From: an uncultured Gammaproteobacteria bacterium
Lineage (GTDB): Bacteria; Patescibacteriota; Patescibacteriia; UBA9934
Length of the DNA stretch: 64,000 nt
Direction of reading: 5' to 3'
NCBI GenBank assembly: GCA_964452565.1
Contig: CAYVLY010000001.1
Location: 291,009-355,008 of the forward strand
A model generated the notes under the pieces. That model was not told the origin of the DNA. It did no database searches and saw only the letters and a list, made by a program, of their open reading frames with translations. The translations under genes were made by a program, and so were the position numbers. Positions 3,308 to 55,413 of the stretch are shown in pieces (positions within the stretch are counted from its first letter, which is position 1; the number at the start of each line of letters is the position of its first letter).

Positions 3308-3440
3308 GTACGCCATATACTCACTCCCCCGCGCTACTCGTGCGGGGATCATGCTTTAAAAACAAAATCCCGCCGGGGACGCCGCGCGGGACCGTGCCCT
3401 ACACCAACTGGTGTGGGGCTTCATGCTTTTTAATTAGACC

Positions 3441-6718: not shown

Positions 6719-8122
6719 TCAGACAGCCGCGATTGCTTCGGAATACGTGGGAAATGCATGCAACATACTTTCGACCTTATCGAAGCTTACATTCAAATGC
6801 ATCGCAAGCGCCAGCTCGTGAATAACATCTCCAGCATGCTCGCCAACCATCTGCGCTCCCAAAATCCTTCCTGTTCGTTTTTCGATAATCACTTTTAGCA
6901 AACCTTTACGCTTATTCTCTGCGACTGCGCGTCCCAAGGCCCCAACTGGAAATGATCTACTTGCAGCCTTCAGTTTCTTGCCCTTAGCATCTTTCATTGT
7001 AATACCAACCGAGGCAACCTCTTGATGCGCAAATGTCACACATGGCACCACTCTATTATCAATCGACCTCATCTTTCCTGCAGTTGTACACATATTCCAT
7101 GCAACAACCTCCCCATCTCTATGCGCCGTGTGCGTCAACCGTAAAGCACCAGAAACATCTCCTGCTGCAAAAATATGCTTCTGCGAAGTCTGAAGCTTCT
7201 TATTCAAAACTAATTGCCCGCGATCACTTACCCTTACTTTTGCCTTTCCCAACTTCAAATCTTTGATGTTAGATCGCTTTCCTGCTGCAACGATCAGTTT
7301 ATCAACTACTATCCTATTACGAGCTTTTCGACCCTCCTGATACACTAACTCAACTTTTGATCCGATTTTCTTAACTGACAAAACCTTTGACTTAGTCAGG
7401 AGATTCACACTCCGCTTTTTCATATCAGCCTGCACAAGCATTGCTATCTCCTCATCTTCATATCCGAGAATATGAGGCGCTATCTCAAATAAATGCACCT
7501 TTGTACCAATCATGCTAAAGAAGGTCGTGAATTCTACACCAACAGGACCACCGCCTATAATCGCGACTGATCTTGGTTGACTCTTAAGCGATACAACCTG
7601 CTTGTAAGTCAAATACGGTACCTTATCGATTCCATCAACCGGCGGCACCCAATCAACTACTCCGGTTGCTATAACAATCTTCTTTGCCTTGTACTTCTTT
7701 TTACCGATCTTAATCGTATGTGGATCAACAAACTCTGCCGAACCTTTTACATATTCAACACCCTTGTCTAGTAATAACTTTTTCAGCCTTTGACCCTTGC
7801 CAGTCACCGTACTCACAACGGCCCGCTTATACTTCATTGCCTGGGAAAAGCTAAACCCAAGTTCACGTGCGGACACGCCATAAGTTGGAAACTCAAACTT
7901 AGCAGCATGATATGCCTTTGCTGATGTGATCATGGCCTTTGTGGGTATACATGCATAGTTTGAACACTCACCTCCAAGCTTGTCTTTCTCAACCAAAATA
8001 ACACTCTTGCCACGCTCGCGCGCACCCAAAGCAGCGCTCAATCCAGCTGAACCGCCGCCGATAACCAAAACATCAGTTACTATCGCCTTTGATCGAACTA
8101 ACTGTTTTTTCCTCCTTTTCAT
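6719..8122 (-). CDS. Class I pyridine nucleotide-disulfide oxidoreductase (dihydrolipoyl dehydrogenase / mercuric reductase-like flavoprotein)
   Basis: FAD-binding VLVIGGGSAGLSAALGA; redox-active disulfide GGECSNYACIPTK; NAD-binding IIGGGPVGVEF; C-terminal dimerisation HAFPTYSEA. Confidence 0.8.
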   Translation of the reverse strand: MKRRKKQLVRSKAIVTDVLVIGGGSAGLSAALGARERGKSVILVEKDKLGGECSNYACIPTKAMITSAKAYHAAKFEFPTYGVSARELGFSFSQAMKYKRAVVSTVTGKGQRLKKLLLDKGVEYVKGSAEFVDPHTIKIGKKKYKAKKIVIATGVVDWVPPVDGIDKVPYLTYKQVVSLKSQPRSVAIIGGGPVGVEFTTFFSMIGTKVHLFEIAPHILGYEDEEIAMLVQADMKKRSVNLLTKSKVLSVKKIGSKVELVYQEGRKARNRIVVDKLIVAAGKRSNIKDLKLGKAKVRVSDRGQLVLNKKLQTSQKHIFAAGDVSGALRLTHTAHRDGEVVAWNMCTTAGKMRSIDNRVVPCVTFAHQEVASVGITMKDAKGKKLKAASRSFPVGALGRAVAENKRKGLLKVIIEKRTGRILGAQMVGEHAGDVIHELALAMHLNVSFDKVESMLHAFPTYSEAIAAV

Positions 8123-8124
8123 AA

Positions 8125-9126
8125 TTATTCACAGAAACTCATTCCCTTATCCCATAGTCGCGACTCCCCCTGCTCTTTCATATAATACCACCATTCAACT
8201 CCCCACAAATAGATCTCATCTGCGCCAATCTGCTTTGCAAAGGCTAAGTTTGCCTCCATGTCCTCAACTGGAAATAATGCGTAAAGATCTTCTGTGGATT
8301 CATCAATATCCTCAATGTCTTCTGGAATCCATGGCTCCATCTGCAGCTCCGAAATAATCACCATATCCACAAATGGCTCTGAGAGAATCCTTTGAACTGT
8401 GTAAACCATTGGTGAATGTGGGAATACAAATGCTCCAAGTGTTTTATTCCAAACTTCACGATATAAACTCACGCCAAGCACATCAAGATTCCATGTTTTC
8501 AAAAACCATAGTGACTGCTCTCCACTTGTTGTCGATTGGATCTGATGTTCTGGATCAAGAAGACGCACAAACCTGACTGTTTGCTCAAATCTATCTACAT
8601 CAGGCGTTGGACAATCACCAAATGGAAAGAATGGTTCGTTTTCAACTTGCCAACGATCTAGAGCTGGGTGATCCCGATATCGTTCAACAACTGTCTCAAT
8701 CATTGAGAAAAAGCCAGCCTTATAGGTTGAATTATCCACCTTTCCAGCCCAATGTGGAATAAAGCATTCAGGCCATCTTGGTACCTTCATCCCCACAACA
8801 AGGGTGACATCGATGCCCTCCTCAGCTGCTCTATCCATCAAATAATCAATAGTATCGAGGTCGTATTCACCTCGATCCTGCTCAATCTCGTCCCAATATA
8901 CTGGGATTCTTAATCGCTCAAGCTGATCAAAGTCTTGCAAAAGCGCCTCATATGTCTCACTAACATCTAAGCCTAAGTACTCGGTATAGTGAGTCGAAAA
9001 CGAAGCGCCGATTCTTGGACTCCTTTCATGAGTCAAAAATCCAAACACTGTGCCAAGCATTACAATAACTAAAACAAAAACAGCCGTGATAGCAACTAAT
9101 CGCTTAAGCTGTTTTTTATCCTTCAT
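8125..9126 (-). CDS. membrane-anchored glycoside hydrolase, TIM-barrel (GH5/GH42-like)
   Basis: N-terminal TM helix after MKDKKQLKRL; NEPF catalytic motif (QVENEPFFP). The start is chosen at the internal Met to avoid overlap; the ORF-track start is 9192. Confidence 0.55.
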   Translation of the reverse strand: MKDKKQLKRLVAITAVFVLVIVMLGTVFGFLTHERSPRIGASFSTHYTEYLGLDVSETYEALLQDFDQLERLRIPVYWDEIEQDRGEYDLDTIDYLMDRAAEEGIDVTLVVGMKVPRWPECFIPHWAGKVDNSTYKAGFFSMIETVVERYRDHPALDRWQVENEPFFPFGDCPTPDVDRFEQTVRFVRLLDPEHQIQSTTSGEQSLWFLKTWNLDVLGVSLYREVWNKTLGAFVFPHSPMVYTVQRILSEPFVDMVIISELQMEPWIPEDIEDIDESTEDLYALFPVEDMEANLAFAKQIGADEIYLWGVEWWYYMKEQGESRLWDKGMSFCE

Positions 9127-9145
9127 ATCCTCCTCTGGCCTATTA

Positions 9146-10720
9146 TCAAATATCCTCCTTTTTCTCGCGGATGAATGCCAACCACTCCTCAATAAATCTC
9201 ACCGCAACCTTAAATGGCGACTCAATGATGAAGTCAAAGAAATAGATGAATACATTGATCTTCGATACTTTCAATGAGAGCCAGCGGCCAAAGTGAACAA
9301 TTGGCAGTACAATTATGTCGAAAAGTGATCCAAACACTCCGCGGCGTTGAGGTGATAAAACAATATCACGTGTTGAGCTTCTGATACGGATTCCAAAGAA
9401 TGTTACTAATGACAAGAAGAATAGGAATAGTCCGATTGAAAATGCATTGAAGTTGAGCTGATATAACATTGTCCCAATCGCAGTATAGACCAACACAAAC
9501 ACAAGAGCGTAAACTGAACTGAATATTGTAGACCATGTTCCAAATCGACTCTTTCCAATGCGCACATTCAAATAATCGTGATTAGATCCCACTACTAATG
9601 CGCGCACTGCGGCTTTATAATCTTCGGCATTACGCCGCTCTGCAACCACAACAGTCATTCCAATAAATGCTAGGAATAATGGGTGGAACAAAATGTTGAT
9701 CGCTAGTGGTATTGGGAATAACTCACCATGCATAAGTAAGTCGTACGGGACTTCGAGAATCACAGCTAAAGCCATCTTGGTTATAAACAAGAATAGTACT
9801 GCTCTGATTGTTGTCCTTCGAAGCCTTGTTCTAAATATCTTAGTGCGTTTCTTTAATGCTTTCCAGATTGAACGTCCAAGCAGATCTGGCTCAGATTCAA
9901 CAAATACCTGGAAGTCAGTCGGGTTGTCCTCAATTACATCTTTAATCACCCTAAAGACGCCAGCTTGACGCCTTAACTTTTGTGAAAGTTTTTCGATTAA
10001 TGGATGTTCAATCTGGCCATCAATTGATGCAATCACAGTATCAAGCTCCTCGGAAATCTCTGCAATACGCGATGGAGTAGATGCCCCTGGCCAATCTGGA
10101 TAATACAAGGCCAGCGTTCGATATCGAAGCGTAGCAAGATCTGATTTAAGAAGCGTCTTATGAACCGCAATGTAAAGAAGCAGATCTTTTTGCTCATCAG
10201 TAACTACAATGCTTGGATCCCACTCTGTTCTCGAACGCATCTGCTCATACATGTAGCCCACCATGAGCTCCTGGTTTTGATGAGACACAATCGCATAATC
10301 TAGCTCGGTCGAGATAACATCTAACAAAAACTGAAATGAAAACTCTGGCTTCCTTGTCTTATCAACTGCCTCTAGCAAAGGCCCATATTTAAGGAATACA
10401 GGTTGCAGTTCATTGATAAACTTTACTGGAATCTGCTTATTGGGAAGATACTTTGCCCACACTAGCTCGCGTAGTAAGTTCTCCGCCATGTCTTCAAGTG
10501 GCATGTCACTACCCAAAAATCGACGCAAGATGCGCGAGATAGCATTTCTTCTAAGTAAGTGATCTTCCTGATACTCAAGTGTTGTGCGGACTTTTTCATA
10601 AAGTGAAGCTGCAGTACTTGCCGGAACGCTAACCTCAATAGTCTCTGCACCTTCCTCAAATGGCAATGCACCTTTTGAAGATTGGATGGCTTGAGCAAGT
10701 TGTAACATTCTTTCAGACAT
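9146..10720 (-). CDS. hypothetical multi-pass membrane protein with a roughly 280-aa soluble N-terminal domain
   Basis: 524-aa ORF; C-terminal half strongly hydrophobic with several helices. Confidence 0.5.
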   Translation of the reverse strand: MSERMLQLAQAIQSSKGALPFEEGAETIEVSVPASTAASLYEKVRTTLEYQEDHLLRRNAISRILRRFLGSDMPLEDMAENLLRELVWAKYLPNKQIPVKFINELQPVFLKYGPLLEAVDKTRKPEFSFQFLLDVISTELDYAIVSHQNQELMVGYMYEQMRSRTEWDPSIVVTDEQKDLLLYIAVHKTLLKSDLATLRYRTLALYYPDWPGASTPSRIAEISEELDTVIASIDGQIEHPLIEKLSQKLRRQAGVFRVIKDVIEDNPTDFQVFVESEPDLLGRSIWKALKKRTKIFRTRLRRTTIRAVLFLFITKMALAVILEVPYDLLMHGELFPIPLAINILFHPLFLAFIGMTVVVAERRNAEDYKAAVRALVVGSNHDYLNVRIGKSRFGTWSTIFSSVYALVFVLVYTAIGTMLYQLNFNAFSIGLFLFFLSLVTFFGIRIRSSTRDIVLSPQRRGVFGSLFDIIVLPIVHFGRWLSLKVSKINVFIYFFDFIIESPFKVAVRFIEEWLAFIREKKEDI

Positions 10721-15930: not shown

Positions 15931-15963
15931 TTTAGGATCGATTTATTTCGAATACGGAATGCA

Positions 15964-15991
15964 AAAAACCCTGCACCAGACGGCACAGGGC
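15964..15991 (-). terminator. rho-independent terminator (ccctgcacc..ggcacaggg hairpin followed by a T-run on the minus strand)
   Basis: Plus strand reads aaaaaaccctgcaccagacggcacaggg; it lies directly 3' of the 16016..16351 ORF. Confidence 0.55.
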
Positions 15992-16015
15992 ACGAAACGA
16001 ATCCATCTTTGACTA

Positions 16016-16351
16016 CTACCCCCAAATAGCCCTTGCAACAAGTCGATTTTGATCAGTACGCTCTCTTCCCGCATCGGTACGTCTATATCGATTAACATTC
16101 CCACTTCTACCCTGCGGTGGCCACGAAGAAGATCTTCGACATGTCAGCAACCCCTCTTGAACCATTTTACGAGCCTCTCTTTGCAAGCTTGGCTTACTTG
16201 GGATGCTATTTTCGTCACAGCCCCTGTTCCTAAGTCTTGCAATTATCTGATCAATACTCAGCGAACTGCCCGTGGCAGCAAGCGCTCCGAGTATCAATGC
16301 ATCGGCCCGAATTATCACATTTGTTTTGCGAGCGCTCTTCTTCTTGGACAT
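16016..16351 (-). CDS. hypothetical small basic protein; GC-rich segment
   Basis: Complete ORF followed by a terminator hairpin; local GC well above the genomic background. Confidence 0.4.
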   Translation of the reverse strand: MSKKKSARKTNVIIRADALILGALAATGSSLSIDQIIARLRNRGCDENSIPSKPSLQREARKMVQEGLLTCRRSSSWPPQGRSGNVNRYRRTDAGRERTDQNRLVARAIWG

Positions 16352-16479
16352 CTCAAACCTCCTTGAACGATTCTAAAAATAGATAATCACACTTCTCTCT
16401 TTGAGTCAATGCAATAAGCCCTGCACCAGGTGGTACAGGGCGCAGACCGCTCTCCAAGGCCGTCGGTCGAATTGTTGAA

Positions 16480-16770
16480 TCATCCACAGCGGCTGGCGAG
16501 CAGGGCAAAGAGAAAGATGCCAGTGACGAAGCCCCATCCGGCCAGGTCGTAGCGACCACCCTTCTTGTAGAGCAATTCGGACCGCTTGTGGATCCCTTCG
16601 AGCTCAGGAGTGATCTTCTGCCCCTCTGCCTTTGCTGCACGATACGGTCGGTCCATGACGAGCGACCTGTCTTTCGCACGCCCGCCCAACCACACCATGA
16701 GCACGAAGCCGACAACGCAAGCACCAGTGAGTGCGGCCAACACAAGGAACATAACGCTCATTCTTTTCAC
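16480..16770 (-). CDS. hypothetical small membrane protein (2 TM); GC-rich segment
   Basis: MKRMSVMFLVLAALTGACVVGFVLMVWLGG ... GWGFVTGIFLFALLASRCG. Confidence 0.4.
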   Translation of the reverse strand: MKRMSVMFLVLAALTGACVVGFVLMVWLGGRAKDRSLVMDRPYRAAKAEGQKITPELEGIHKRSELLYKKGGRYDLAGWGFVTGIFLFALLASRCG

Positions 16771-16856
16771 CTCCCGCAGTTATGAGAATAAGTCGTTCAA
16801 ATTAAAGCAGATCGAAAACAAAAAATCAACCCTCACTTCTCAGGTTGATCATTAAA

Positions 16857-18502: not shown

Positions 18503-20095
18503 CTATTCAACCAACACACTTCCGGTCATCTCATCTGGTGCATCAAGGCCCATCATTGATAAAAACGTTGGCGCTATATCTGCAAGCATTCCAACTGGAG
18601 GAACACGCGACAAATCCTTACTAGGGATATCACCCGTGACTCCTGACTTTCCTTCAAGCCGGTTTGCAACGACCCAAAGCGGAACTGGGTTTGTACTATG
18701 TTCCTTATCGATTCCTCCTGTTTGCAAGTTCTTTACTTCCTCTGCGTTACCATGATCTGATGTAATCATTACCATCCCATCTTTTTTCAAAACTTCTTTA
18801 ACGATCTTCCCGAGGCAATCATCAACAACTTCAACAGCTTGAATCGTAGCGTCTAGATTGCCAGTATGCGCAACCATGTCTGGATTTGCAAAATTAACAA
18901 AAATCGCATCATAGTTATCAGTTTTGACTTCTTTGATAATCCTATCAGTAAGTTGATATGCAGACATCTCTGGCTGCTGGTCATAACGCGGCACATGCGG
19001 CGACGGAATAATTATATGATCTTCCTGATCAAACGGCTGCTCCTGTTTACCATTCAAAAAATAAGTAACGTGTGCGTATTTTTCAGTCTCTGCAATGTGC
19101 AGCTGTACCAGCTTCTTTTTTGCAATAACTTCACACAAAGTGTTGCTAACCTTTTCTGGTGGAAATGCAACTTCAACTGGTAGCCCCTTTTCATACTCTG
19201 TCATGCAAACAAAATGCAAATTTTCAACATAGTCTCGATCAAACTTATGAAAGGTTGGTAAAGTAAATGCCTTTGTAAGTTGACGTGCACGATCTGACCG
19301 ATAGTTATAAAAAATCATTGCATCACCATCATTAACTTTTGCAACTGGCTCGCCACGTTTGGTTATTACAACAGGAACAAACTCCTCATCAAAAACTTCT
19401 TTAGCATAAGATGCTTTTAATGCCTCGAGCGGATCCTCAAATGTCTGAGTTGACGAACCGTCGACCATTGCTCGATACGTCTTTTCGGTCCTATCCCATC
19501 GATTATCACGGTCCATTGCGTAATAACGTCCAGATATGGTCGCGATCTGACCGATCCGGAAATCAGAGATCTTCTGCTGTAAAGCACCAACAAAATCAAT
19601 TCCAGAATTATAAAGTGAATCACAGCCATCCAAAAAAACATGGATTGCCAGGTTTTCAACTCCCCGCTGCTTAGCGAGCTCCATCAGTTCATAGCAATGC
19701 CGATTAAATCCATGCACTTTCCCAGCTGAGAGCACCCCCATCAGATGCAATGTTCCGCCAGTTTTTTTTACATGCTCTGCTGCTGATACTAACTTTTCAT
19801 TTTCAAAAAAACTCTTGTCTTCAATTGCATTGTCAATTCGCGGCAAGTCTTGATAATGAACTCTGCCAGCACCAATTGTTAAATGACCAACCTCAGAATT
19901 ACCCATCTCTCCCCAAGGCAGACCAACTGTCTCGCCAGCAGCACGCAGAATCATGGTTGGATAGCGCTGTGTTAGCATGTCGAGCGTTGGGGTTTTTGCT
20001 TTGGTAATAGCGTTTCCAGAAGCGTCGGGCGCAATACCAAAACCATCCAATACTATCAGTACAGCTGGCCGCGGGCGTTTTTTATTATCTGGCAT
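18503..20095 (-). CDS. gpmI: 2,3-bisphosphoglycerate-independent phosphoglycerate mutase
   Basis: N-terminal RPRPAVLIVLDGFG, metal-binding TSDHGN, overall length of about 530 aa. Confidence 0.85.
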   Translation of the reverse strand: MPDNKKRPRPAVLIVLDGFGIAPDASGNAITKAKTPTLDMLTQRYPTMILRAAGETVGLPWGEMGNSEVGHLTIGAGRVHYQDLPRIDNAIEDKSFFENEKLVSAAEHVKKTGGTLHLMGVLSAGKVHGFNRHCYELMELAKQRGVENLAIHVFLDGCDSLYNSGIDFVGALQQKISDFRIGQIATISGRYYAMDRDNRWDRTEKTYRAMVDGSSTQTFEDPLEALKASYAKEVFDEEFVPVVITKRGEPVAKVNDGDAMIFYNYRSDRARQLTKAFTLPTFHKFDRDYVENLHFVCMTEYEKGLPVEVAFPPEKVSNTLCEVIAKKKLVQLHIAETEKYAHVTYFLNGKQEQPFDQEDHIIIPSPHVPRYDQQPEMSAYQLTDRIIKEVKTDNYDAIFVNFANPDMVAHTGNLDATIQAVEVVDDCLGKIVKEVLKKDGMVMITSDHGNAEEVKNLQTGGIDKEHSTNPVPLWVVANRLEGKSGVTGDIPSKDLSRVPPVGMLADIAPTFLSMMGLDAPDEMTGSVLVE

Positions 20096-20238
20096 AGTGG
20101 ATTGATTATATCAAATGTAGGCGGTATGCAGTAGGCGGTATGCAGCAATAAAAAACCCGCCCCAGTTGGGACGAGCGCGCACAAAGAAATGTGCTGTATC
20201 CGCGATGTTTGGACCTACGTCAGTCCAATCGCGACTTG

Positions 20239-20700
20239 TTACCCGTTTTCGGGCGAGCGCCCCGGTGGTGTCCAATTTTTCACCACAATAAGATCCTTGA
20301 TAACCTTTTCCAGGTCATTTACACCATAAACCACAGTATGCCTCTCGTCCTTCTCGAGCTCTGGAGGCATGTCTGGACCGCGAACAATGCAAAGGCGTTC
20401 ATGTGTACAATTCTGCAACGCCTGATGGACCTGAGGGTTAGGAATGCCTTGCGCAATCTCACACCAGGTCAAAACGGCTGGCCAATCACTGACGCTAAGA
20501 ATGATCAGGTCAACCGGGCCATGCCTATACAGGCTATACGTAGCATAGAACAGGTAATTCCCACTTGTTGCAATGATCCATCTAAAGGACCCCTTGTGCT
20601 GCTCTGCGCAACTTGACACTTGCTGAATCTCTTCATGGCTCAGCGGCCCATCGTGCTCGATGAACATCACGTCAACGCCCTTGATCTTACCGCCGCTCAT
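20239..20700 (-). CDS. hypothetical protein, member D of a tandem paralog quartet
   Basis: Shares VRGPDMPxE...V..DL(E/V) block with member C. Confidence 0.5.
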   Translation of the reverse strand: MSGGKIKGVDVMFIEHDGPLSHEEIQQVSSCAEQHKGSFRWIIATSGNYLFYATYSLYRHGPVDLIILSVSDWPAVLTWCEIAQGIPNPQVHQALQNCTHERLCIVRGPDMPPELEKDERHTVVYGVNDLEKVIKDLIVVKNWTPPGRSPENG

Positions 20701-21257
20701 GAATCACCCCCTTGCTGCTGCTGGATCTTGGCGTAGTGTAGTTCAGTAAGGTGATGGACAAGATGATCATAGCCATCGACGATCGTGATGCGCTCTACCG
20801 CTCGAATCTCCTCCTCGGGCATGTCTGGACCACGTACAGCCACCAGCTGTGGGCTTTGTACCTCCCTTTTTCTACTAAGCCCACCGATGTCTGCGTCAGC
20901 CCTTCTGAATTCACGCCAAAAGTAGAAAACATTCTGCCATCTTGACACATCCAAGACAATCACATGAATAGTCCTCTCGGACTCATCAAGGCTACGACCC
21001 CTCTTCCACTTCCATGCCAAAACCTCATATGCGCGAGTAGCGTAACACGGAACGCGGCCGATGGTATATGGCATGAGGCTACCACCAATCTCAGACATGT
21101 GTGCCCCCAATGTCTCCCATTGCTGAACACTGAGCACGCCACCATCGAGAATCAAAAGAACGTTCAGTCCACTCATGGTTTTTCTCCTTTCATTCCACTC
21201 GTGGAGATTTAATGTACTAGCCATGGCCAATTTTGTCAAAAGCAAAGAGCCCTGCAC
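20697..21257 (-). CDS. hypothetical protein, paralog quartet member C (alternative start MASTLNLH at about 21224)
   Basis: N-terminus identical to member B through the 147-bp repeat; ORF-track start is a GTG inside the hairpin. Confidence 0.5.
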   Translation of the reverse strand: MQGSLLLTKLAMASTLNLHEWNERRKTMSGLNVLLILDGGVLSVQQWETLGAHMSEIGGSLMPYTIGRVPCYATRAYEVLAWKWKRGRSLDESERTIHVIVLDVSRWQNVFYFWREFRRADADIGGLSRKREVQSPQLVAVRGPDMPEEEIRAVERITIVDGYDHLVHHLTELHYAKIQQQQGGDS

Positions 21258-21347
21258 CTTATTGGCACAGGACCACGAATAGCATGGGCTATGAGACTAG
21301 CCAAGTTCTGGATCTGTGAGGATCTTGCTGAGTGCAGCCTCGAGCTC
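21201..21347. repeat. 147-bp direct repeat copy 1 (100% identical to 21788..21934). It spans the 3' end of one paralog, the intergenic hairpin and the 5' end of the next.
   Basis: Direct sequence comparison: gtggagatttaatgtactagccatggcc...gcagcctcgagctc is identical in both copies. Confidence 0.85.
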
Positions 21348-21833
21348 CTCAGTCGTATTGACCACAATCGCATCGCCATAGTCACCAGGGGGCGGATTAA
21401 CCAGGATAATTGGCATGGCTTGTACCTCGTCCCTGCCAATATAGCGACTCTGCGCGTTCGCTACAGCTTGGTCTGATTGATACCCCTTCATAAGATGCAT
21501 ACCCCTAGGTCCGAAATCAATCAGAATGGCTATCAGGGAACCACCTCCGCCAAGCTCCTTACGTCCAGCATGGCGGCATATTTCAATTTCTATCATCTCC
21601 CGCAGACATGCCTGTTTTGGGAGCTTGGGCTTCACCCAAAGCTGCACCTCGAGTCGATAGCCCACATCTACCAAATCTTCAGGAGCAAAGTAATAACCTC
21701 TCAGATTCGTTACCTTATCTTCAAGGTAAATCACAACGTATCTTTCCTGCATTTTGAACCCTTCCTTCTCATTACAGTGGAGATTTAATGTACTAGCCAT
21801 GGCCAATTTTGTCAAAAGCAAAGAGCCCTGCAC
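21297..21833 (-). CDS. hypothetical protein, paralog quartet member B
   Basis: N-terminus identical to C; C-terminus ...PPPGDYGDAIVVNTTEELEAALSKILTDPELG nearly identical to member A. Confidence 0.5.
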   Translation of the reverse strand: MQGSLLLTKLAMASTLNLHCNEKEGFKMQERYVVIYLEDKVTNLRGYYFAPEDLVDVGYRLEVQLWVKPKLPKQACLREMIEIEICRHAGRKELGGGGSLIAILIDFGPRGMHLMKGYQSDQAVANAQSRYIGRDEVQAMPIILVNPPPGDYGDAIVVNTTEELEAALSKILTDPELG

Positions 21834-21934
21834 CTTATTGGCACAGGACCACGAATAGCATGGGCTATGAGACTAGCCAAGTTCTGGATCTGTGAGGATC
21901 TTGCTGAGTGCAGCCTCGAGCTCTTCGGGCGTGT
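21788..21934. repeat. 147-bp direct repeat copy 2
   Basis: Identical to 21201..21347. Confidence 0.85.
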
Positions 21935-22385
21935 TGACCACGATTGCCTCGCCATACTCACCCGGCGGCGGGCAGATGAGGACGATCGGAATCGGTGACA
22001 GGATCAAGTCCAATGGCAGTTGCTGGAGCTGCGCTTCGAAAAACCTACCGGCAAGCCTCATGATGTCCTTGGCTTTTGGATAGCGCCTCAGAGACTCGCC
22101 GGCGCAAACCAGATCACCAAAGACCAGCAATGCCTTATAGCCTCGTCCACTCGCCGACCACTCCCAGATCGCATCGAGTGCGATCAACTGGATAGCGATA
22201 CTGACGGGACAAATAAGCCCATGATATGCGGGGCCTGGACAACCTTCAGGTGACCCAACAACCGCGAAGCTCGGCCCGACTGATCGCCTTAGAGAATAAC
22301 TCAGATCCTCAAGGGCCCGATACATCTCATTACGTCTGCTCCAGATCGAATAGTCGCATACAACATAAACGCTGGGAATCGGCAT
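21873..22385 (-). CDS. hypothetical protein, paralog quartet member A
   Basis: C-terminus ...PPPGEYGEAIVVNTPEELEAALSKILTDPELG shared with B. Confidence 0.5.
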   Translation of the reverse strand: MPIPSVYVVCDYSIWSRRNEMYRALEDLSYSLRRSVGPSFAVVGSPEGCPGPAYHGLICPVSIAIQLIALDAIWEWSASGRGYKALLVFGDLVCAGESLRRYPKAKDIMRLAGRFFEAQLQQLPLDLILSPIPIVLICPPPGEYGEAIVVNTPEELEAALSKILTDPELG

Positions 22386-22596
22386 CGAACCTCCTTCATC
22401 ACTTTCTGGTGGTGACTGAGATTAACAGAAGATTCAGATTCTGTCAATAACAAAACACCCCTTTGTCTTTCAAACAAAGAGGTGGTCAACCCTTTTGGTG
22501 ATTGTTTAATCGCTCGGGCTGGGCCCTCGCTTGTCCAAAATGTCTAAAATGTTTATTTCTAAATAAACAACTTGGACACTTTCAACATCTTAAACA

Positions 22597-22950
22597 TCAT
22601 CTATTAACTGCCATTGAATCATCTGGATTTATATATCGCACATCATCTACTTTCACAAGTCCGAGCATTTGCACACGTGTCATCACACTATCGATTGAAC
22701 GAAGGGATGAGACCTGTTGCTGCAATTGTTCGTTCTCGTGTTCAAGATCGGCAATCTCATGTTCCATATCCCGCACAGCATAGCCTTGAGTAGCTGACAT
22801 GTTTACTTGCCAGATATAGAGCGCTCCGACAACTGCCACACAGGCTAGTAAACAATATCCGAACCACTTTGTGGATGTAAAATTGAGAGTCATGGTTGTA
22901 ATAGACGGGATCGTCATAGTCCTCCGAGTCGGCTTCCCCAGTCGGCGCAT
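22597..22950 (-). CDS. FtsL-like cell-division protein (single TM plus coiled coil), downstream of rsmH
   Basis: Position in the mraZ-rsmH-ftsL order; TM helix WFGYCLLACVAVVGALYIW; heptad-like EHEIADLEHENEQLQQQV. Confidence 0.55.
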   Translation of the reverse strand: MRRLGKPTRRTMTIPSITTMTLNFTSTKWFGYCLLACVAVVGALYIWQVNMSATQGYAVRDMEHEIADLEHENEQLQQQVSSLRSIDSVMTRVQMLGLVKVDDVRYINPDDSMAVNR

Positions 22951-25383: not shown

Positions 25384-26078
25384 AAACCGAAACATAAAAA
25401 ATTTGTCGCATGCGATGTCCGATCGGACAACATATGCGACATTTTGATTTTATCGTGATCTTGTTGTAACCTTACAGCGAGCCCCTTGCTAAAAAGGAGA
25501 CAGATCGTTGTCAGATTCTTCTTCACCTTCAGCCGAAACTCTCACGCTAGATGCTGACACCCACAGGGAATCCAGTCAGTGGATCCTGACCATCGCTGTA
25601 GTCTGTGCTGGTAAGCGAATACACGAAGAGATCATGCCTACAAAGCCCGTGCCCTCTCTGCTGGCCCCTGAGGTCGCAGGCGTTCTGCGTGAATGGACCA
25701 ACAACGGAGCACCCAGACTCCACATCGACAAACAATCGGCTGAAACCATCAGAAGAACCTCTGGAATACATCTTCGACTCGACGGAAGACGGATCACCGG
25801 CATGCGTGATTCATTCCACGTTCCGTTCGAAGACCTCCAGTGATGATCAGCTCCCCCTCCCCGTACCCGCCCACCTCAGGGCGGGCTTCGCTTTTCAAAA
25901 GCACGAAACCCGCCGGCCCGATATGATCGAGGGCGGGTGCTAGGCGTTGCAAAACGCGATCAAATTGGCCGCAACCAGTGCGACAATGACCACGGTCCAT
26001 CTGAGAAGGTCTGATCCTCTCACGATAACCTCCAAGGAAAGGGCTTACTTCTAGATTATCGCGTTCTGATTCAATTGT

Positions 26079-49770: not shown

Positions 49771-50262
49771 ATGTGAATGAGTTAGTCCCGTGGGGTTTAA
49801 AAAACCACGGCCTTAACGCCGTGAAACAATGAGATCTGATCAAAAGTTCGATCAAATAGCCTCGATAGGACTTACGCTCTTGCAAGCAACCTATTGTCTT
49901 TAGCATTAAGTTGTCAGAAGTATAGAATATTGGCCAAATTATGTCAAGAAGCAGAACGCTCGCCCTTTCGGACGAGCAGTACGTGTACGTGTGGCGCTGA
50001 GGCTACTCAGAGCAGTACTAGCTTTTGATGCCAAACAGCTCAGTGATGATGCCGACAGCCTCTACCTTGGCCCGTTCCAGGTCCCCATGCAGTGTATACT
50101 GCTCCCAGAAAAGCCGCATCAACAAGCAACGCAAGCACATATTTTCATGACCACAAGCCATGTCTCTTTCCTTTCCCTGTGACAAGTAACACTAGAGGTG
50201 GCAATTAAAATAGCACCTATCCCCTTTCTTGTCAATTATCTGAGGTCTAAGTGCTTATCAAT

Positions 50263-50390
50263 CCGACCAAAGGCTTCGACTTTCCTCTTGTCATCCCTGG
50301 CTACGACCAGGGATCCATCGATTATCGAACTCTATAGTTGATGGATTCCCGCTTTTGCGGGAATGACAATAGATCAAAAACTTTGGTCAG
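50263..50390. repeat. Island hairpin repeat, long form (the structured element at 50289..50368 is inserted in the repeat loop)
   Basis: atccgaccaaaggcttcgactttc[ctcttgtcatcc...gaatgaca]atagatcaaaaactttggtcag. Confidence 0.7.
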
Positions 50391-50467
50391 AGCGGCGCGT
50401 TTTCCTTGCGCCGCACGTGACTATTCTCGCGCGGGAGGGAGAATAGTGTCGCTAGGCCTCTTGGGGC

Positions 50468-51652
50468 CTAGAAGAAGACTGTTGGTCCAACCATCTCATC
50501 GTGCGCGATCATATGGTAGTCAACGCCATCATCGGAAACCATGATCGAGTCTTCCGGAACCGTGACAGTCACTCGATCATCACCACTCGCAGCAGTCGCT
50601 CCAGTGCCGTCCACCGAGAACGTGACTCCGAGGATATCTTCGGCATCTACATTGATCGGCGCGTACGAAACGCCATCAAAGCTTGCGGTATGCGTACAGA
50701 TCGTTAGGATGCAAGTATCGCCGGGATAGCACGGGCCATAGCCATCCTCCATACATGCACCGCTTTCTACCGCTGCCTCACCAAGCAAGGCGCCGGAGTC
50801 GGTGTCGTACATGTACACAGAGCTCAGCCCTGCACACCATCCAGTGTCATCGTAGCTCCAGCAATCGACAAACACGGATGTGGGACTGATCTGGAGGTCA
50901 GAGCATTCATGCAGAGTGCTGAAGTTCGTATTGAGCGCATCGACGATTCCGGGAGTGGTTGAGGTATCGATCGTATACACATCGTCGACGACCAGCTCAT
51001 TGCTCATCTCGACCTCGGTCCCATCAGCCAATTCGACATCCCACCGGCAGGTGTTGTCCACATAGTTCATGAAGTCCGGGCTTTCACCGCCGTTGTTGGC
51101 CAGGATCACGACTCTGTCTGCAGTTGAGACGATATCGGATGGATCCAGGATGTCGAATGCGAATCCGACTTCGACACGGATGAACTCTGTGACGTCCTCA
51201 GAGATGTCGCACACCAGGTTGAGTGCTGTGGCGCGACGTCCAACGTTGAACCCACTATCAAGCAACAGGTGCTCATCAAGGATTATCTCAGTTGGCGGCT
51301 CGACAGTGCTGCCAGTCATGGCGTTGGACAGACGACAGCGCTGAACATACTGACTCAGATCAGTGAAGCCACGGTCGACTCCATCCATGCCGTAGTCGAT
51401 CAGTGCCGTTGGGCTCACGCTGAACACGTGGATGGGCCTTGGGTCTCCTGACCCAACCTCTGCTCCACGTTCTTCAACCTGCCGCAAGGTCAATGTACCG
51501 AAGTACACATTCTCCTGACCGGGCTGCACCTCTACCAATCCAGACCCCGGGCCCTCGAACTTGACCTTGAGGATCGAAGCATGCGAGCTGTGTGGCAAGA
51601 GATAGCCCATGAGGGCAACGATGAGAACAAACAGAATATTTGCGAAACGCAT
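50468..51652 (-). CDS. secreted Cys-rich hypothetical protein (island cassette)
   Basis: Signal peptide MRFANILFVLIVALMGYLLPHSSHA; 394 aa with diverse composition. Confidence 0.55.
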   Translation of the reverse strand: MRFANILFVLIVALMGYLLPHSSHASILKVKFEGPGSGLVEVQPGQENVYFGTLTLRQVEERGAEVGSGDPRPIHVFSVSPTALIDYGMDGVDRGFTDLSQYVQRCRLSNAMTGSTVEPPTEIILDEHLLLDSGFNVGRRATALNLVCDISEDVTEFIRVEVGFAFDILDPSDIVSTADRVVILANNGGESPDFMNYVDNTCRWDVELADGTEVEMSNELVVDDVYTIDTSTTPGIVDALNTNFSTLHECSDLQISPTSVFVDCWSYDDTGWCAGLSSVYMYDTDSGALLGEAAVESGACMEDGYGPCYPGDTCILTICTHTASFDGVSYAPINVDAEDILGVTFSVDGTGATAASGDDRVTVTVPEDSIMVSDDGVDYHMIAHDEMVGPTVFF

Positions 51653-52014
51653 AGCGTTTCCTTCCGGCCTTAGCGGCCTTGCATAGTACGGAATGCACTA
51701 CATCGGACGCGATGTCCGATCAAAGAGTTCGATGATAGTTGAAATGTCTAATCGTTCGGCCAAAGGCCTCACTTGTTGAAATTGTTGACGTTGCTTATCG
51801 CACCGTAAACATCTTCAACAACTTAAACAGTTTAAACATTCCTATCAAACACTTAAATCAGACCCCCTGCACTGGAGAGAGACCGGTGCAGGGATTCTGT
51901 AGTACTAGATAATTAGTACGTCCAAAAGACTCGAAATTATTCAAATACTTTGGATGAACCCCCTGCCGACGAAATTCGGCAGGGGCCAGGACTTGGGTTT
52001 CACGGATTTGGAAT

Positions 52015-52054
52015 CCGACCGAAGGGTTCAAGTTTGCTTAAACACTTTGGTCGG
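52015..52054. repeat. Island hairpin repeat CCGACCGAAGGGTTCAAGTTTGCTTAAACACTTTGGTCGG
   Basis: 10-bp stem CCGACCGAAG/CTTTGGTCGG (one G-U pair if RNA); loop carries the T-loop-like GGTTCRA. Confidence 0.75.
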
Positions 52055-52101
52055 ACGATGCGCTCAGATGAACGCACCGTAGAACGGTGTGAGTAGTCGG
52101 C

Positions 52102-52293
52102 CTAGCCGTCTGCGAACACCAGGCACCTGTCCTTGGTGGCGTCGGGGTTGAGGTGCTTCCGCAGCGCGGGATCGAAGGCCACATTCTCGCAACCTTCCGG
52201 GATCTCGTACTCGCCCAGGCTGACACCGGTGCACCCCGTCGCGGAGAAGCATGCGATGAAGGCCAGGGCCAGGCTGATGATGGTCTTACGCAT
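52102..52293 (-). CDS. small lipoprotein, 4 Cys (island cassette)
   Basis: MRKTIISLALAFIACFSATGC lipobox. Confidence 0.5.
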   Translation of the reverse strand: MRKTIISLALAFIACFSATGCTGVSLGEYEIPEGCENVAFDPALRKHLNPDATKDRCLVFADG

Positions 52294-52349
52294 GATGAAC
52301 TCCGTGGAGGCGCGGCAAAGCCGCTAGGGTTGAAGGTATCACTCTCGAA

Positions 52350-52389
52350 CCGACCGAAGGGTTCGAATTACTTCAAACACTTTGGTTGA
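52350..52389. repeat. Island hairpin repeat (ccgaccgaagggttcgaattacttcaaacactttggttg)
   Basis: Same family. Confidence 0.75.
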
Positions 52390-52454
52390 CCCCCTGCCGC
52401 GTATGTTGGCAGGGGCGCTCACGCGAGTCGCGTGGCGTCGTAGTAGTTGTGGGC

Positions 52455-52886
52455 CTACCAGCCCTGGAGCTGCTTGATCGTGAGAGCGGTTTCCTGTGCG
52501 CACACCAGATGAGGGTGCGTGATGAACGAAGCGGTACTCTGGTCCATGATCCTCATGAGCGCCGCCAGCAGATCGCACGGCCTGCCACCGAAGTGCAGAC
52601 CCACAGGACTCACGGCAGCCAGGAACATGCCCAGCAGCCACACCTCGCCGTCAGCGGTGCTGGCACTGTAGGTGATGGTCCAGGAACGTGGATCGTCCAG
52701 GTGTCTCACCACCCGGAGGCGTGATTCACCGGAACCTAGGTACGTCCTCCGGTCACTGGATCCTGACCAGGTGTCCCGCCCCATCAGCTCGCTGAGCCTG
52801 GCGATGTCTTTGGACAACACCACCGTGCTTATCTCGATCTGGCGGGCAAGGAATCCCCCGAAGAGCCTCTCAAAGATACCGAACAT
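52455..52886 (-). CDS. hypothetical cytoplasmic protein (island cassette); start at MFGIFERLFGG
   Basis: ORF between two repeat copies; ORF-track start 52931. Confidence 0.45.
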   Translation of the reverse strand: MFGIFERLFGGFLARQIEISTVVLSKDIARLSELMGRDTWSGSSDRRTYLGSGESRLRVVRHLDDPRSWTITYSASTADGEVWLLGMFLAAVSPVGLHFGGRPCDLLAALMRIMDQSTASFITHPHLVCAQETALTIKQLQGW

Positions 52887-52942
52887 GGCATCTCCTCTCA
52901 CCTGGCTCTGGGGCCAGGGCTCTGGTTTCACGGATTTGGAAT

Positions 52943-52982
52943 CCGACCGAAGGGTTCGATATTCATCAAACGCTTTGGTCGG
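52943..52982. repeat. Island hairpin repeat (ccgaccgaagggttcgatattcatcaaacgctttggtcgg)
   Basis: Same family. Confidence 0.75.
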
Positions 52983-53197
52983 TCCCGCCCAGACATTATG
53001 CGGGAGACGAAGAAAAGGGACTACAGGCCAAGCAATCTACAGATACACTCGACGATGACCAACCCAACCAGTATACCAAGGCCCAGGCAAACCAGATCTC
53101 TGTAGAAATTGGTACGGGTGCGACTATCAAACAAAGATACCTACTTCCACCTGGCGTCAACCAGGAGTTATGGGGTTTCAAGAATGGACACAGCGGC

Positions 53198-53374
53198 CTA
53201 CTTGGGCTTCCATTCTCCAGGACAGACACCCTGACGCTCGTACAAGGTGATTGCAGTGCTGCAGTACTCCGCCAACTCCTCCTTATTCATCATGATCGGA
53301 GGCTTGGGAAGGTACCACAACGCAAACACCGCCAGCGCCAACAGCGCACATCCAGCCAGCAGTTCTCTCGACAT
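53198..53374 (-). CDS. small secreted protein of about 58 aa (island cassette; below the ORF-track size cutoff)
   Basis: Manual translation MSRELLAGCALLALAVFALWYLPKPPIMMNKEELAEYCSTAITLYERQGVCPGEWKPK. Confidence 0.4.
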   Translation of the reverse strand: MSRELLAGCALLALAVFALWYLPKPPIMMNKEELAEYCSTAITLYERQGVCPGEWKPK

Positions 53375-53448
53375 TCCAACTCTCTTTCACCTAGTAAAAA
53401 CCGGGGTCAGAGGTGAGGGTTCGGATTTGCGATCCTATTTGACGCATA

Positions 53449-53488
53449 CCGACCAAAGGCTTCGAATTGTTTCAAAAACTTTGGTCAG
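53449..53488. repeat. Island hairpin repeat (ccgaccaaaggcttcgaattgtttcaaaaactttggtcag), followed by a shared roughly 45-nt module gtaggtgaggcttgtcgtcaattcgacactacctc
   Basis: Same family; the extra module is also present after the 54067 copy. Confidence 0.7.
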
Positions 53489-53541
53489 ACCCCCCGCCCA
53501 GACATTATGCGGGGGACGTAAGACGTAGGTGAGGCTTGTCG

Positions 53542-54012
53542 TCAATTCGACACTACCTCGAGGGTGGGATCTTCGGATTCGTGTTCTTCTCCATGGCGTG
53601 GCATGATCGCCATACCCAGGAGAATCCACGCGATCCACGGGAAGAGCCACTCGAACGGCCAGAGCACCCAATCCGCCAGGAACTGACGAAAAGGAGTCCG
53701 ACTCGGACAGCCCTGAGTGAACCACTCGATGGCGAAGAACCGAGGTTCCGTATCCCGATTCATCTTGCCCTGATAGTGAGAATCAGCCCATCCGCATTGC
53801 CACCACACACCACCACGATCACGTTCTAGGCGGCAGCTGGCGTAGCGGTCGTAACCAAGCATGAGCGAGGTTATGGTAGCTGCGTTCTTCTCGCCATCAC
53901 CATCGATGTCGAGGATAGTCCTATCCACACAGCCAACTGCACACGACCCAAGGGACAATCCAAGGGCGATGAAGAAAGCTACATTGAAGATGATTCCTCT
54001 GAGTCGCTCCAT
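53542..54012 (-). CDS. lipoprotein with a C-terminal TM helix (island cassette); start at MERLRG
   Basis: MERLRGIIFNVAFFIALGLSLGSC lipobox; Trp-rich C-terminal helix. Confidence 0.5.
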   Translation of the reverse strand: MERLRGIIFNVAFFIALGLSLGSCAVGCVDRTILDIDGDGEKNAATITSLMLGYDRYASCRLERDRGGVWWQCGWADSHYQGKMNRDTEPRFFAIEWFTQGCPSRTPFRQFLADWVLWPFEWLFPWIAWILLGMAIMPRHGEEHESEDPTLEVVSN

Positions 54013-54066
54013 AGCAACTCCTTCCACCAGATTTCTCTGGGTTGAAGATTGGAGTTCGGATTGGAT

Positions 54067-54107
54067 CCGACCGGAGACTTTGAAATACTTTCAAAATCTT
54101 TGGTCAG
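54067..54107. repeat. Island hairpin repeat (ccgaccggagactttgaaatactttcaaaatctttggtcag)
   Basis: Same family, diverged loop. Confidence 0.7.
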
Positions 54108-54175
54108 ACCCCCCACCCGAAAACAATGTGGGGGTCAAAGACGTGGGTGAGGCTTGTCGTCAATTCGACACTACC

Positions 54176-54643
54176 TCAGGGGCTGGTGCTGGTCCTGCAC
54201 TGCATCGAATAGACGATGAAGGTGAACAGCGCTGATACCAAGACGCAGACCTGGCAGGTCCTGCCCAGGAAAGTCTCAAACGGCATCGTGCTTGGAACGT
54301 AGATCACGAGGCCAGGGTAGATGGCTACCACCAAGCACGTGAAGATGCCAAGTGCCATCACAGTAGTGTACATGGCGCAGAACATACACATCACGTTGCT
54401 GGTGAAGGACTTGCGTACGCCATCCACGAACAGCAAGCCTGTTCCGAGAAGGCAAAGCACGACGCCAACAAGGAACGATACGAAGTACACGAGATACATC
54501 GGTATATCTTCCACCTGGCTGTAGCCAGGAGTTAAGGGTTCAAGCTCGGATTCATGATCCGACCAAGAACCTCGAGAGAGTTCAAGATTCTTGGTCGGCG
54601 GCGGCCTGTCGAGAGTATCGACTTCCGCCTTGTACGTACTCAT
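54176..54643 (-). CDS. 4-TM membrane protein (island cassette)
   Basis: Four hydrophobic helices; Cys-rich. Confidence 0.5.
   Translation of the reverse strand: MSTYKAEVDTLDRPPPTKNLELSRGSWSDHESELEPLTPGYSQVEDIPMYLVYFVSFLVGVVLCLLGTGLLFVDGVRKSFTSNVMCMFCAMYTTVMALGIFTCLVVAIYPGLVIYVPSTMPFETFLGRTCQVCVLVSALFTFIVYSMQCRTSTSP
54559..54598. repeat. Island hairpin repeat, diverged copy lying inside the 5' end of the 54176..54643 ORF (ccgaccaagaacctcgagagagttcaagattcttggtcgg)
   Basis: Same stem; loop variant. Confidence 0.5.
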
Positions 54644-54649
54644 ACGTAG

Positions 54650-54757
54650 TCAACAGCCCTGCAGGAAAAGCAAGGGGAAAATCATGGCGACTATCACCAC
54701 GCCCATCATAATCAGTGCCCAGCTCACCTCATCCATTCCACTTTTTTGGGAGTCCAT
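54650..54757 (-). CDS. putative 35-aa membrane peptide (island)
   Basis: Manual translation MDSQKSGMDEVSWALIMMGVVIVAMIFPLLFLQGC. Confidence 0.25.
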   Translation of the reverse strand: MDSQKSGMDEVSWALIMMGVVIVAMIFPLLFLQGC

Positions 54758-54828
54758 AGGACTCCTTTCCCCGGCTTATTGCCGGATGCGTCTCTAGGAC
54801 GCCTTCTGAATTGACTCTTTTACTATAA

Positions 54829-54869
54829 CCAACCGAAGGGTTCGATTATTCATCAAACACTTTGGTCGG
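54829..54869. repeat. Island hairpin repeat (ccaaccgaagggttcgattattcatcaaacactttggtcgg)
   Basis: Same family. Confidence 0.75.
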
Positions 54870-54915
54870 ACGATGCACCCGGGTGGTGCATCGTACGGGA
54901 CGAGGGGGTTGTTGG

Positions 54916-55362
54916 CTACCAGTGCATGAAGTCGTGGATGCTCTGGGCCCCTGTGCGAACGTGTGTGAACAGCTGCAGGAGATCGCCATTCTCACAGCGC
55001 ATCCAGCCCGAGATCAAGCTCCTGAGCCTGGACATACGCTGACTAGACATATTCGTGGGCTTGGTGTCTCCCAGGGCGTTGAGCAGCACGGGCAGCACGG
55101 GCGCTTCATATACAGTCGGCTGGCCCCACAGGAAGTACTCTAGCTTCCAGGTGCCATCGGGCTGCTGCTTGGCCTCGAGGAACTCGAATCCCTGCGGCCA
55201 CGCGAACCTGAGCGCCTCCTGGCCGTCTTCCTGCTCAGACTCGATGGTCATGCGGCGCTTGGCGCTCTCATGGGCTCGGGCCATGGCCTCAGCCGAGACG
55301 GTCGCCTCCACTTGAACTGACCGACTCTTCCGCTTCGCGCTTGGACGAGTAATCACACTCAT
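54916..55362 (-). CDS. hypothetical protein (island cassette)
   Basis: ORF between repeat copies. Confidence 0.45.
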   Translation of the reverse strand: MSVITRPSAKRKSRSVQVEATVSAEAMARAHESAKRRMTIESEQEDGQEALRFAWPQGFEFLEAKQQPDGTWKLEYFLWGQPTVYEAPVLPVLLNALGDTKPTNMSSQRMSRLRSLISGWMRCENGDLLQLFTHVRTGAQSIHDFMHW

Positions 55363-55413
55363 CTCCTCTCACCTGGCTCTGGGGCCAGGACTCTGGTTGA
55401 ACGGATTTAGAAT

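Follow-up and report, generated by a model that had tools for sequence, protein, structure and literature searches.

An exact 147-bp junction repeat in an islet of orphan genes between ftsL and gpmI of Candidatus Uhrbacteria

The 64-kb stretch of DNA considered here (hereafter the window) is part of an NCBI contig of 709,517 bp from a member of Candidatus Uhrbacteria, within the Candidate Phyla Radiation (CPR), or Patescibacteria. In a protein search with its gpmI product, the best relatives came from metagenome-assembled genomes (MAGs) of Candidatus Uhrbacteria or Patescibacteria, the closest being L002 (JABHCP010000019) with 82% amino acid identity. Between ftsL (22597-22950) and gpmI (18503-20095) lie four consecutive minus-strand genes, here called A to D, together with an exact direct repeat of 147 bp. 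The two copies of the repeat, at 21201-21347 and 21777-21923, are 576 bp apart, occupy the A-B and B-C junctions and are the only ones in the window. An earlier note on this DNA had described two identical 147-bp segments; the repeat is real, but the second segment as given there (21788-21934) lies 11 nt away from the true copy and differs from the first. The best explanation is probably homologous recombination at a junction of gene tail, terminator and promoter within a lineage-specific accessory islet. Recombination has left a real footprint in the repeat, which is nevertheless a curiosity of modest weight and does not demonstrate a variation system.

Gene A (21873-22385) encodes a protein of 170 amino acids (aa) and has the sequence AAGGAGG 4 nt before its ATG. 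Gene B (21297-21752) encodes 151 aa when read from an ATG that is preceded by a Shine-Dalgarno sequence (MQERY...), whilst its maximal open reading frame (ORF) extends to 21833. Gene C (20697-21176) encodes 159 aa beginning MSGLN, which is also how the C protein on record begins, and gene D (20239-20700) encodes 153 aa. The start of D overlaps the stop of C (ATGA) and hence C and D are probably co-transcribed; D has a terminator of its own, found by a terminator scan at 20155-20176 (minus strand). All four genes have a positive coding score in the annotated frame only (0.12-0.26 bits per codon, with +0.12 for A and +0.26 for B, against 0.315 ± 0.09 for host genes), the other five frames being strongly negative. 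Their GC content at third codon positions (GC3) is 0.49-0.60, with A at 0.60, compared with 0.42 in the host. A toxin-antitoxin interpretation of the overlapping C-D pair is ruled out, as the two are paralogs of each other.

The absence of a recognisable domain in A-D, as reported in the earlier note, was borne out by searches of Pfam, NCBIfam, PADLOC and PHROGs, which returned nothing; Pfam at E <= 10 gave one irrelevant match, for B. A sequence search of the PDB with both profiles was also negative. Each protein is a singleton cluster among ~15 billion proteins, and three k-mer-seeded searches (5.8 billion proteins) and an exhaustive HMMER search with a C+D profile (1.84 billion representatives) recovered only A-D themselves. 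The lone extra match, a 28-aa stretch within a 1657-aa protein (E 4e-4), is regarded as spurious. An exact-protein look-up found no NCBI version of A or B on record. No signal peptide or membrane segment was seen by eye in any of the four. Judged from their sequences, A-D appear to be small, cytoplasmic orphan proteins that are likely to be functional.

A and B share only their last 42 aa, which are 76% identical and end in 16 identical residues, in keeping with the near-identical C-terminus noticed earlier. C and D, on the other hand, are paralogs over their full length (26% identity over 141 aa, E 2e-7, z = 11.8 against shuffles), with conserved motifs in common that include the VRGPDMP block picked out in the earlier note. 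Between the A and B cores there is no relationship (local-alignment z = -0.97), and neither core is related to C and D (z between -0.5 and 0.4, hhalign probability 0.1); taken together, all core comparisons fall between -1.6 and 1.5. The locus is therefore better described as two pairs than as the paralogous quartet first proposed, which is not demonstrable. A joint alignment of A-D was too divergent for seeding a genome scan.

An AlphaFold2 model of C has an alternating beta-alpha, flavodoxin-like arrangement of moderate confidence (predicted local distance difference test, pLDDT, 63.5), and a Foldseek search with this model against the PDB and BFVD found nothing significant. The model suggests that C and D probably adopt a flavodoxin-like alpha/beta fold. 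Structure prediction, which the earlier note had proposed as a follow-up, was informative for C but not for A, where the pLDDT was 35. By eye, all four proteins end in a beta strand, a Pro-rich loop, a further beta strand and a helix (ICPPPGEYGEAIVVNTPEELEAAL in A and B; VRGPDMPEEEIRAVERITIVDGYDHLVHHL in C), and they may have a common fold, a suggestion that comes from visual comparison and not from alignment statistics. Membership of the CheY-like receiver (REC) family (PF00072, Response_reg) is not supported, with no match to that family for A-D in Pfam at E <= 10 or in NCBIfam. In C, Asp stands at the end of beta-1 and again at that of beta-3 (VLDVS), the place of the phospho-acceptor in receivers; at the aligned beta-3 position D has Ser (LSVSD). 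No receiver-type conserved Thr/Ser or Lys is visible, nor any Lys-Pro after beta-5, in so far as a model with a pLDDT of 63.5 allows these positions to be read.

The junction module occurs on the minus strand as copy 1 (A to B, 21777-21993) and copy 2 (B to C, 21201-21417), each an older repeat of ~217 nt within which the perfect tract lies. In the direction of transcription, each 147-bp copy opens with the last 16 codons of the upstream gene (ELEAALSKILTDPELG) and a TAG stop. A hairpin resembling an intrinsic terminator follows, GGTCCTGTGCC-AATAA-GGTGCAGGGCT (21824-21850 in copy 1 and 21248-21274 in copy 2), with the T-tract CTTTGCTTTT after it. Overlapping the T-tract is a sigma-70-like promoter, TTGACA-17 nt-TACATT, which matches at 10/12 positions and has its -35 box at 21815-21810 and 21239-21234 and its -10 box at 21792-21787 and 21216-21211 in the two copies, respectively. 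The repeat terminates ~10 nt past the -10 box, close to where transcription is predicted to start. The module can be recognised by the sequence markers GAGCTCGAGGCTGCACT...GGTGCAGGGCTCTTTGCTTTTGACA, of which L002 carries a variant. The promoter is called because of its position and the conservation of the -35 box and spacing in three of the four known module copies, rather than from scan statistics: of the copies in the window and L002, the three that precede a gene all retain TTGACA and the 17-nt spacing, whereas the copy without a downstream cassette reads TTGATA. Both the promoter and the terminator activity of the module are predictions.

This anatomy alters how the ends of the repeat are to be read. 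The earlier note had it spanning the 3' end of one gene, a hairpin and the 5' end of the next; the gene tail and terminator are indeed there, but the supposed 5' end is non-coding promoter DNA. Likewise, the identical N-terminus MASTLNLH attributed to B and C exists only in their maximal ORFs, where the repeated promoter region is read in frame by ORF extension. This stretch has no Shine-Dalgarno sequence and lies upstream of the predicted -10 box, whilst the unique sequence after the repeat provides GGAAGGG-6 nt-ATG for B (21752) and AAGGAG-7 nt-ATG for C (21176). From these signals MASTLNLH would not be protein at all, and the starts of B and C appear to belong at the downstream ATGs.

A similar layout is found before A, where the ftsL terminator is followed by TTGACA-17-TAATCT, AAGGAGG and the ATG. 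The putative promoter (22419-22447, minus strand) consists of TTGACA (22447-22442), a 17-nt spacer and TAATCT (22424-22419), overlaps the T-tract of the ftsL terminator and, with a -10 box that matches at 3/6 positions, is below the scan threshold. The ftsL terminator itself (22456-22484, minus strand), identified by terminator scan, forms the left edge of the variable islet, with homology to L002 stopping just beyond it. At the right edge, after the D terminator, blastn against L002 delimits a conserved gpmI promoter region (20058-20145). The locus is thus predicted to comprise three transcription units, namely A, B and C-D.

The terminator stem of the module belongs to a house-style family in the window, CCCTGTRCC-loop-GGTGCAGGG followed by a T-rich tail, with members at 3385-3432 (+), 15955-16002 (-), 16405-16452 (-), 21248-21274 (-) and 21824-21850 (-). 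The L002 variant of the stem is GGTGTGGGGCTTTTGGCTTTTGA. Near 16440 the terminator is followed by a promoter-like TTGACT box, as in the module. The module was also considered as a miniature inverted-repeat transposable element (MITE) or other mobile element and rejected as such, since only its terminator(-promoter) part recurs in the window, as the house-style terminator, and the full module does not. Rfam, run over the locus and the whole window, found a single tRNA, outside the locus.

Beyond the perfect tract, homology between the two copies continues for ~70 nt into the coding 3' ends of A and B with 21/70 differences (70% identity) and then ceases, whilst at the opposite edge similarity falls to random immediately. 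The 147 nt themselves have no differences, for which the probability at the divergence of the adjacent tail is ~1e-20. This identity therefore reflects a recent event inside an older repeat of ~217 bp, and a sharp-edged tract of identity within diverged older homology is the pattern expected of gene conversion. The perfect identity, which runs through non-coding DNA, is that of a recent homologous-recombination event, so that the recent conversion or duplication proposed in the earlier note is upheld. In the 26 adjacent codons of the A/B tail outside the tract, the proportion of synonymous differences (pS) is 0.69 and that of nonsynonymous differences (pN) is 0.21, giving a ratio of nonsynonymous to synonymous divergence (dN/dS) of ~0.13. 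The low ratio indicates that the tail is a translated and selected peptide, and the high pS that its duplication is old.

These values also weigh on whether the ORFs are genes at all. One reading, which can be given hardly any credence, takes the region for non-coding DNA or for pseudogenes in decay and the repeat for a dispersed terminator element. It would fit the complete lack of homologs, the score for A of 0.12, which is below the training minimum of 0.13, and the recurrence of the stem GGTGCAGGG, found five times in the window against an expectation of 0.34. It does not account for a coding signal confined to one frame in four successive ORFs, the well-placed Shine-Dalgarno site on each of them, the purifying selection on the shared tail or the full-length identity and conserved motifs retained by C and D.

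A perfect repeat in a MAG may be suspected of being an assembly artefact, as the earlier note recognised. The repeat was therefore compared with Logan assemblies (k=31) of runs SRR8146440 and SRR8146441, in which three contigs of the same organism have 0 mismatches to the window. One contig from SRR8146440 (L084) runs from the upstream genes through ftsL into A and stops at window position 21894, exactly 30 nt into copy 1. Two others, L083 (SRR8146440) and L001 (SRR8146441), begin at window position 21230, and so contain the last 30 nt of copy 2, and proceed through C, D and gpmI. A true repeat that has two contexts on its left and two on its right would make contigs break at k-1 from either side, just as seen here, and an artefact is unlikely. 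It might still be argued that strain variants or a mis-join simulated the second junction and that the genome has only one copy, given that the repeat is perfectly identical, is about as long as a short read, comes from a MAG and is spanned by no contig of the independent assemblies, every one of which halts inside it. Very little probability attaches to this, as in two runs the graph branches on either side of the repeat, and A and B have clearly different tails ahead of the tract that nonetheless both run into it. In the sister species, moreover, two assemblies show the module twice in the same arrangement, in copies that can be told apart (87-93% identity). L001 also ends at window position 18384, in the intergenic region downstream of gpmI, whilst L083 continues past this point; the end points to a further short repeat there, or to a break in coverage or between strains.

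The islet lies beside a conserved cluster. The order mraZ-rsmH-ftsL-gpmI is kept in ~27 of the related loci fetched, and in ~22 relatives just 66-350 bp separate ftsL from gpmI. In the window the two genes stand 2.5 kb apart and in L002 1.6 kb, and for L004, L010 and L013 the distance is 1.8-1.9 kb. In the last three the inserts (at about 8000-10000) are unrelated and encode membrane or secreted proteins, or a HAD hydrolase with a cyclopropane-fatty-acid-synthase-like gene. In five lineages, then, 1.6-2.5 kb is present at this site, and the inserted genes are unrelated save for the module that L002 has in common with the window. Near-empty in most relatives and filled with unrelated genes in these five, the stretch between ftsL and gpmI is a hot spot for insertion in Uhrbacteria. 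The islet has a GC content of 50-55% against 41-45% in its flanks and is foreign-looking in composition, both in GC and in GC3. The neighbours of A-D are housekeeping genes, the ORFs up to ~10 kb away encoding FtsL, RsmH, MraZ, an MFS transporter fragment, GpmI, PAP2, an NTP transferase, a deaminase, YceG, DUF2207, DUF362 and similar proteins. No toxin, secretion, recombinase or defence gene occurs within ~10 kb of the islet.

The sister species L002 also carries the module twice between ftsL and gpmI, at a distance of 601 bp, with tail parts (9105-9184 and 9706-9785) that are 90% identical and terminator/-35 parts (9258-9310 and 9822-9874) that are 87% identical. In a four-way alignment, 29 sites group the window copies of A and B together and the two L002 copies (g1 and g2) together, whilst the alternative groupings have 2 sites each. 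Module identity is 94-100% and 78-93% within the two genomes and 66-73% between them. Copies within a genome are thus closer than positional counterparts across genomes, and the module evolves in concert in both lineages. According to blastn, the homologous blocks of the two loci are the ftsL end with its terminator (window 22649-22452 and L002 8381-8576, 86% identity), the modules (82-84%) and the gpmI promoter (83%), and nothing else. Neither A, B, C nor D has a counterpart in L002, which has instead a gene for a 157-aa membrane protein and a different gene of ~130 codons. With flanks that are 82-86% identical, vertical divergence could not have erased all similarity, and the cores have therefore been replaced non-orthologously whilst the junctions were kept.

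This result also bears on the idea that all four genes are paralogs, derived by old tandem duplication of one flavodoxin-like ancestor, with extreme divergence of the cores and a junction kept alike by conversion. The paralogy of C and D, the purifying selection on the A/B tail, the flavodoxin-like model of C and the succession of acidic-ended beta strand, beta strand, Pro-rich loop, beta strand and helix that can be seen by eye in A-D all agree with it. Such an origin is nonetheless improbable, as no statistical similarity links the A core to the B core or A/B to C/D, and divergence by descent does not explain unrelated cores in a sister species where even a pseudogene would have stayed ~80% identical.

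Some details of the sister species, at 9374-9768 and 8643-9172 of L002 and at 2381-2692 of L082, a JGI contig from a separate assembly of the same species, deserve separate mention. The gene with the shared tail contains an in-frame TAG (L002 9632-9634). Behind the gene for the 157-aa membrane protein the other module copy is one frame off, and its alternative frame reads ...LTPIPAKTPEELEVALRKILAEVEA, resembling an A-type tail with an internal deletion. L082 repeats both features and ends at the second module copy. The L002 locus may be decaying rather than functioning.

The preferred explanation, which the evidence makes probable though well short of certain, is as follows. An islet of ~2.3 kb has come to lie between ftsL, a cell-division gene, and gpmI, at the insertion hot spot. 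Its A-B and B-C junctions are two copies of an old module of ~220 bp that comprises a 42-codon tail, a stop, a predicted intrinsic terminator and a predicted sigma-70-type promoter, such that the module could close the upstream gene, insulate it and supply a promoter to the next gene. Its copies being direct repeats, RecA-type homologous recombination could act on them, and the 147-bp tract is probably the footprint of a recent event of this kind. The tract may have arisen by gene conversion between the two old copies, or by a single crossover of a circular [B + module] with a resident module; the geometry, [A tail | 147 | B 5' untranslated region (UTR) - B core - B tail | 147 | C 5'UTR], fits both origins, which are indistinguishable here. 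In the longer term, cores flanked by modules have been swapped for non-homologous sequences whilst the module itself evolves in concert. With a perfect direct repeat of 147 bp, RecA-dependent pop-out or duplication of B would be expected, and either event would be harmless to A, the tail of which would be restored from the other copy, and to the C-D promoter.

Several observations count against this explanation. At the L002 locus, the membrane-protein gene is followed by the first module copy in another frame, and the in-frame TAG precedes the second. The module is found in two genomes only, so that cassette exchange rests on a single comparison. The A-B-C order is the simplest path through the assembly, but de Bruijn graphs cannot prove order. 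A promoter scan of the region gave 3 sites against 2.9 in shuffled sequences. The structure predictions are poor for A and no better than moderate for C.

Concerted evolution by gene conversion between repeats is familiar in bacteria, for example in duplicated tuf genes and ribosomal RNA operons. The module resembles these in having a sharp identity tract within diverged repeats and copies that group by genome. It differs in that the homogenised unit is not a gene but a tail, terminator and promoter that join unrelated genes. A search of the literature on Uhrbacteria and gene conversion, or on the run accession, found nothing.

A more ambitious interpretation is that the locus is a dedicated cassette-exchange or variation system, in which a selected junction shuffles a population-wide pool of variable genes, such as orphan immunity genes against polymorphic toxins. 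Unrelated cores lie between constant junctions in two species, the geometry suits Campbell-type insertion and pop-out of B, and elsewhere in the window another GC-rich island also has palindromes repeated at its junctions. Small and cytoplasmic, the cores are free of homologs, atypical in GC and equipped with predicted promoters of their own, much like arrays of orphan immunity genes. Orphan toxin/immunity arrays, as in contact-dependent inhibition (CDI), Rhs and recombinase-associated acquired interbacterial defence (rAID) islands, have small fast-turnover genes with poor homology, short conserved junctions that recombine, atypical composition and replacement from strain to strain. The present locus shares the small homolog-poor genes, the atypical composition, the gene replacement and the short conserved junctions that permit recombination. 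However, it has no toxin domain, secretion system, recombinase or match to a defence model, the usual accessory machinery being absent from ~10 kb, and its conserved part is the 3' tail of a gene and not the 5' constant region of a toxin. Moreover, there are only two junction copies per genome, and those of L002 adjoin pseudogenised or out-of-frame sequence. No further module was found elsewhere in the window, in 80 related loci besides L002 or in viral contigs; a degenerate DNA pattern of the module retrieved a single contig from JGI metagenomes, L082, which is the L002 species itself; and tail-peptide scans of JGI metagenomes and IMG/VR gave no confirmed relatives. A dedicated system is therefore unlikely, although it deserves to be kept in mind.

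The same observations bear on what the earlier note had inferred. Its picture of a cassette locus with constant junctions and variable cores holds in the comparison with L002, although with two junction copies only. Nothing supports the link it drew to contingency, antigenic-variation or effector/immunity loci, for which neither a surface signal (by eye), tandem simple repeats nor more than two repeat copies were found, nor any toxin, secretion or recombinase gene within ~10 kb. It had proposed a search of related genomes for expansions of the family and for linkage to toxin or immunity genes; beyond the window, the module turned up only in L002 and L082 among the sequences searched, and the neighbours of A-D are housekeeping genes.

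The nearest analogy is an integron array, or a cluster of attC sites lacking an integrase (CALIN). Such arrays consist of tandem, co-oriented small ORFs, mostly without database homologs, that are separated by conserved hairpin-bearing junction repeats of ~100-150 bp; the repeats are more alike within an array than between arrays, and excision of a circular unit of ORF and junction is possible in principle (PMC4889954). The present locus also has co-oriented orphan ORFs with homogenised, hairpin-bearing junctions, and circular excision is conceivable. However, attC sites are defined by R''/R' boxes with conserved AAC and GTT triplets (RYYYAAC ... GTTRRRY) and by an imperfect hairpin of the single-stranded DNA, and cassettes rarely contain promoters (PMC4889954). 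Neither RYYYAAC nor GTTRRRY is present on either strand of the two module copies, including ~20-30 nt of flank, and the 99-nt non-coding part, folded as single-stranded DNA, does not surpass its shuffled versions (z = -0.21 and -0.01), only the 8-11-bp terminator stem being formed. These two results rule out an attC or integron reading, and the likeness stops at analogy. An integron integrase, IntI, which is needed for a complete integron but not for a CALIN, was not found among the ORFs within ~10 kb, a scan that did not take in every ORF of the window. The module also differs from integron junctions in having a coding tail and a predicted promoter at each junction, where integron cassettes are generally expressed from a single Pc promoter, and in having two copies only. 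Recombination here would be homology-dependent, of the RecA type, and not site-specific.

By extension of this analogy, the module might be a universal junction for integrase-free, homology-driven cassettes in the CPR, with unrelated small genes being captured, excised as circles and swapped among strains at one fixed hot spot of the chromosome, but this must be regarded as distinctly unlikely. Equally doubtful is the corollary that the genes might be immunity or host-interaction factors with a common C-terminal beta-beta-alpha tail, in a system that would be integron-like in function through RecA and possibly natural transformation.

Three other parts of the window have an elevated GC content. 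The second and larger island, at 50000-58000, has 52-63% GC against ~45% and contains small minus-strand ORFs with atypical codon usage (52455-52931, 53542-54027, 54176-54643 and 54916-55362). It carries at least 7 copies of a palindromic junction repeat of 40-55 nt (CCGACCGAAGGGTTC...AAACNCTTTGGTCGG), near 52000, 52335, 52928, 53434, 54826, 55399 and 56873, and a 60-nt repeat at 54852/55520 that is 92% identical. Its sequences are unrelated to the 147-bp module, although the cassette-like layout is similar. On the minus strand at 15960-16850 there are two GC-rich stretches (up to 56% GC) with no convincing ORFs, a 130-aa ORF at 16353-16745 scoring negative. Both end in house-style terminators and could be unannotated small RNAs; Rfam at gathering thresholds found nothing there. 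Finally, a short patch at 25500-26000 has 51-57% GC and a plus-strand orphan ORF of 111 aa (25508-25843) with no Pfam match.

For annotation, the practical consequence is that the starts of B and C move to the downstream ATGs. As it stands, the locus provides a clean example of a regulatory junction evolving in concert, along with four protein families without relatives among ~15 billion sequences and an insertion hot spot beside a division and cell-wall cluster. Should it be true that the module mediates gene exchange, its sequence would be a handle with which to retrieve the accessory gene pool of Uhrbacteria, and it would show how the ultra-small, recombination-dependent genomes of the CPR renew their accessory genes without dedicated mobile-element enzymes.

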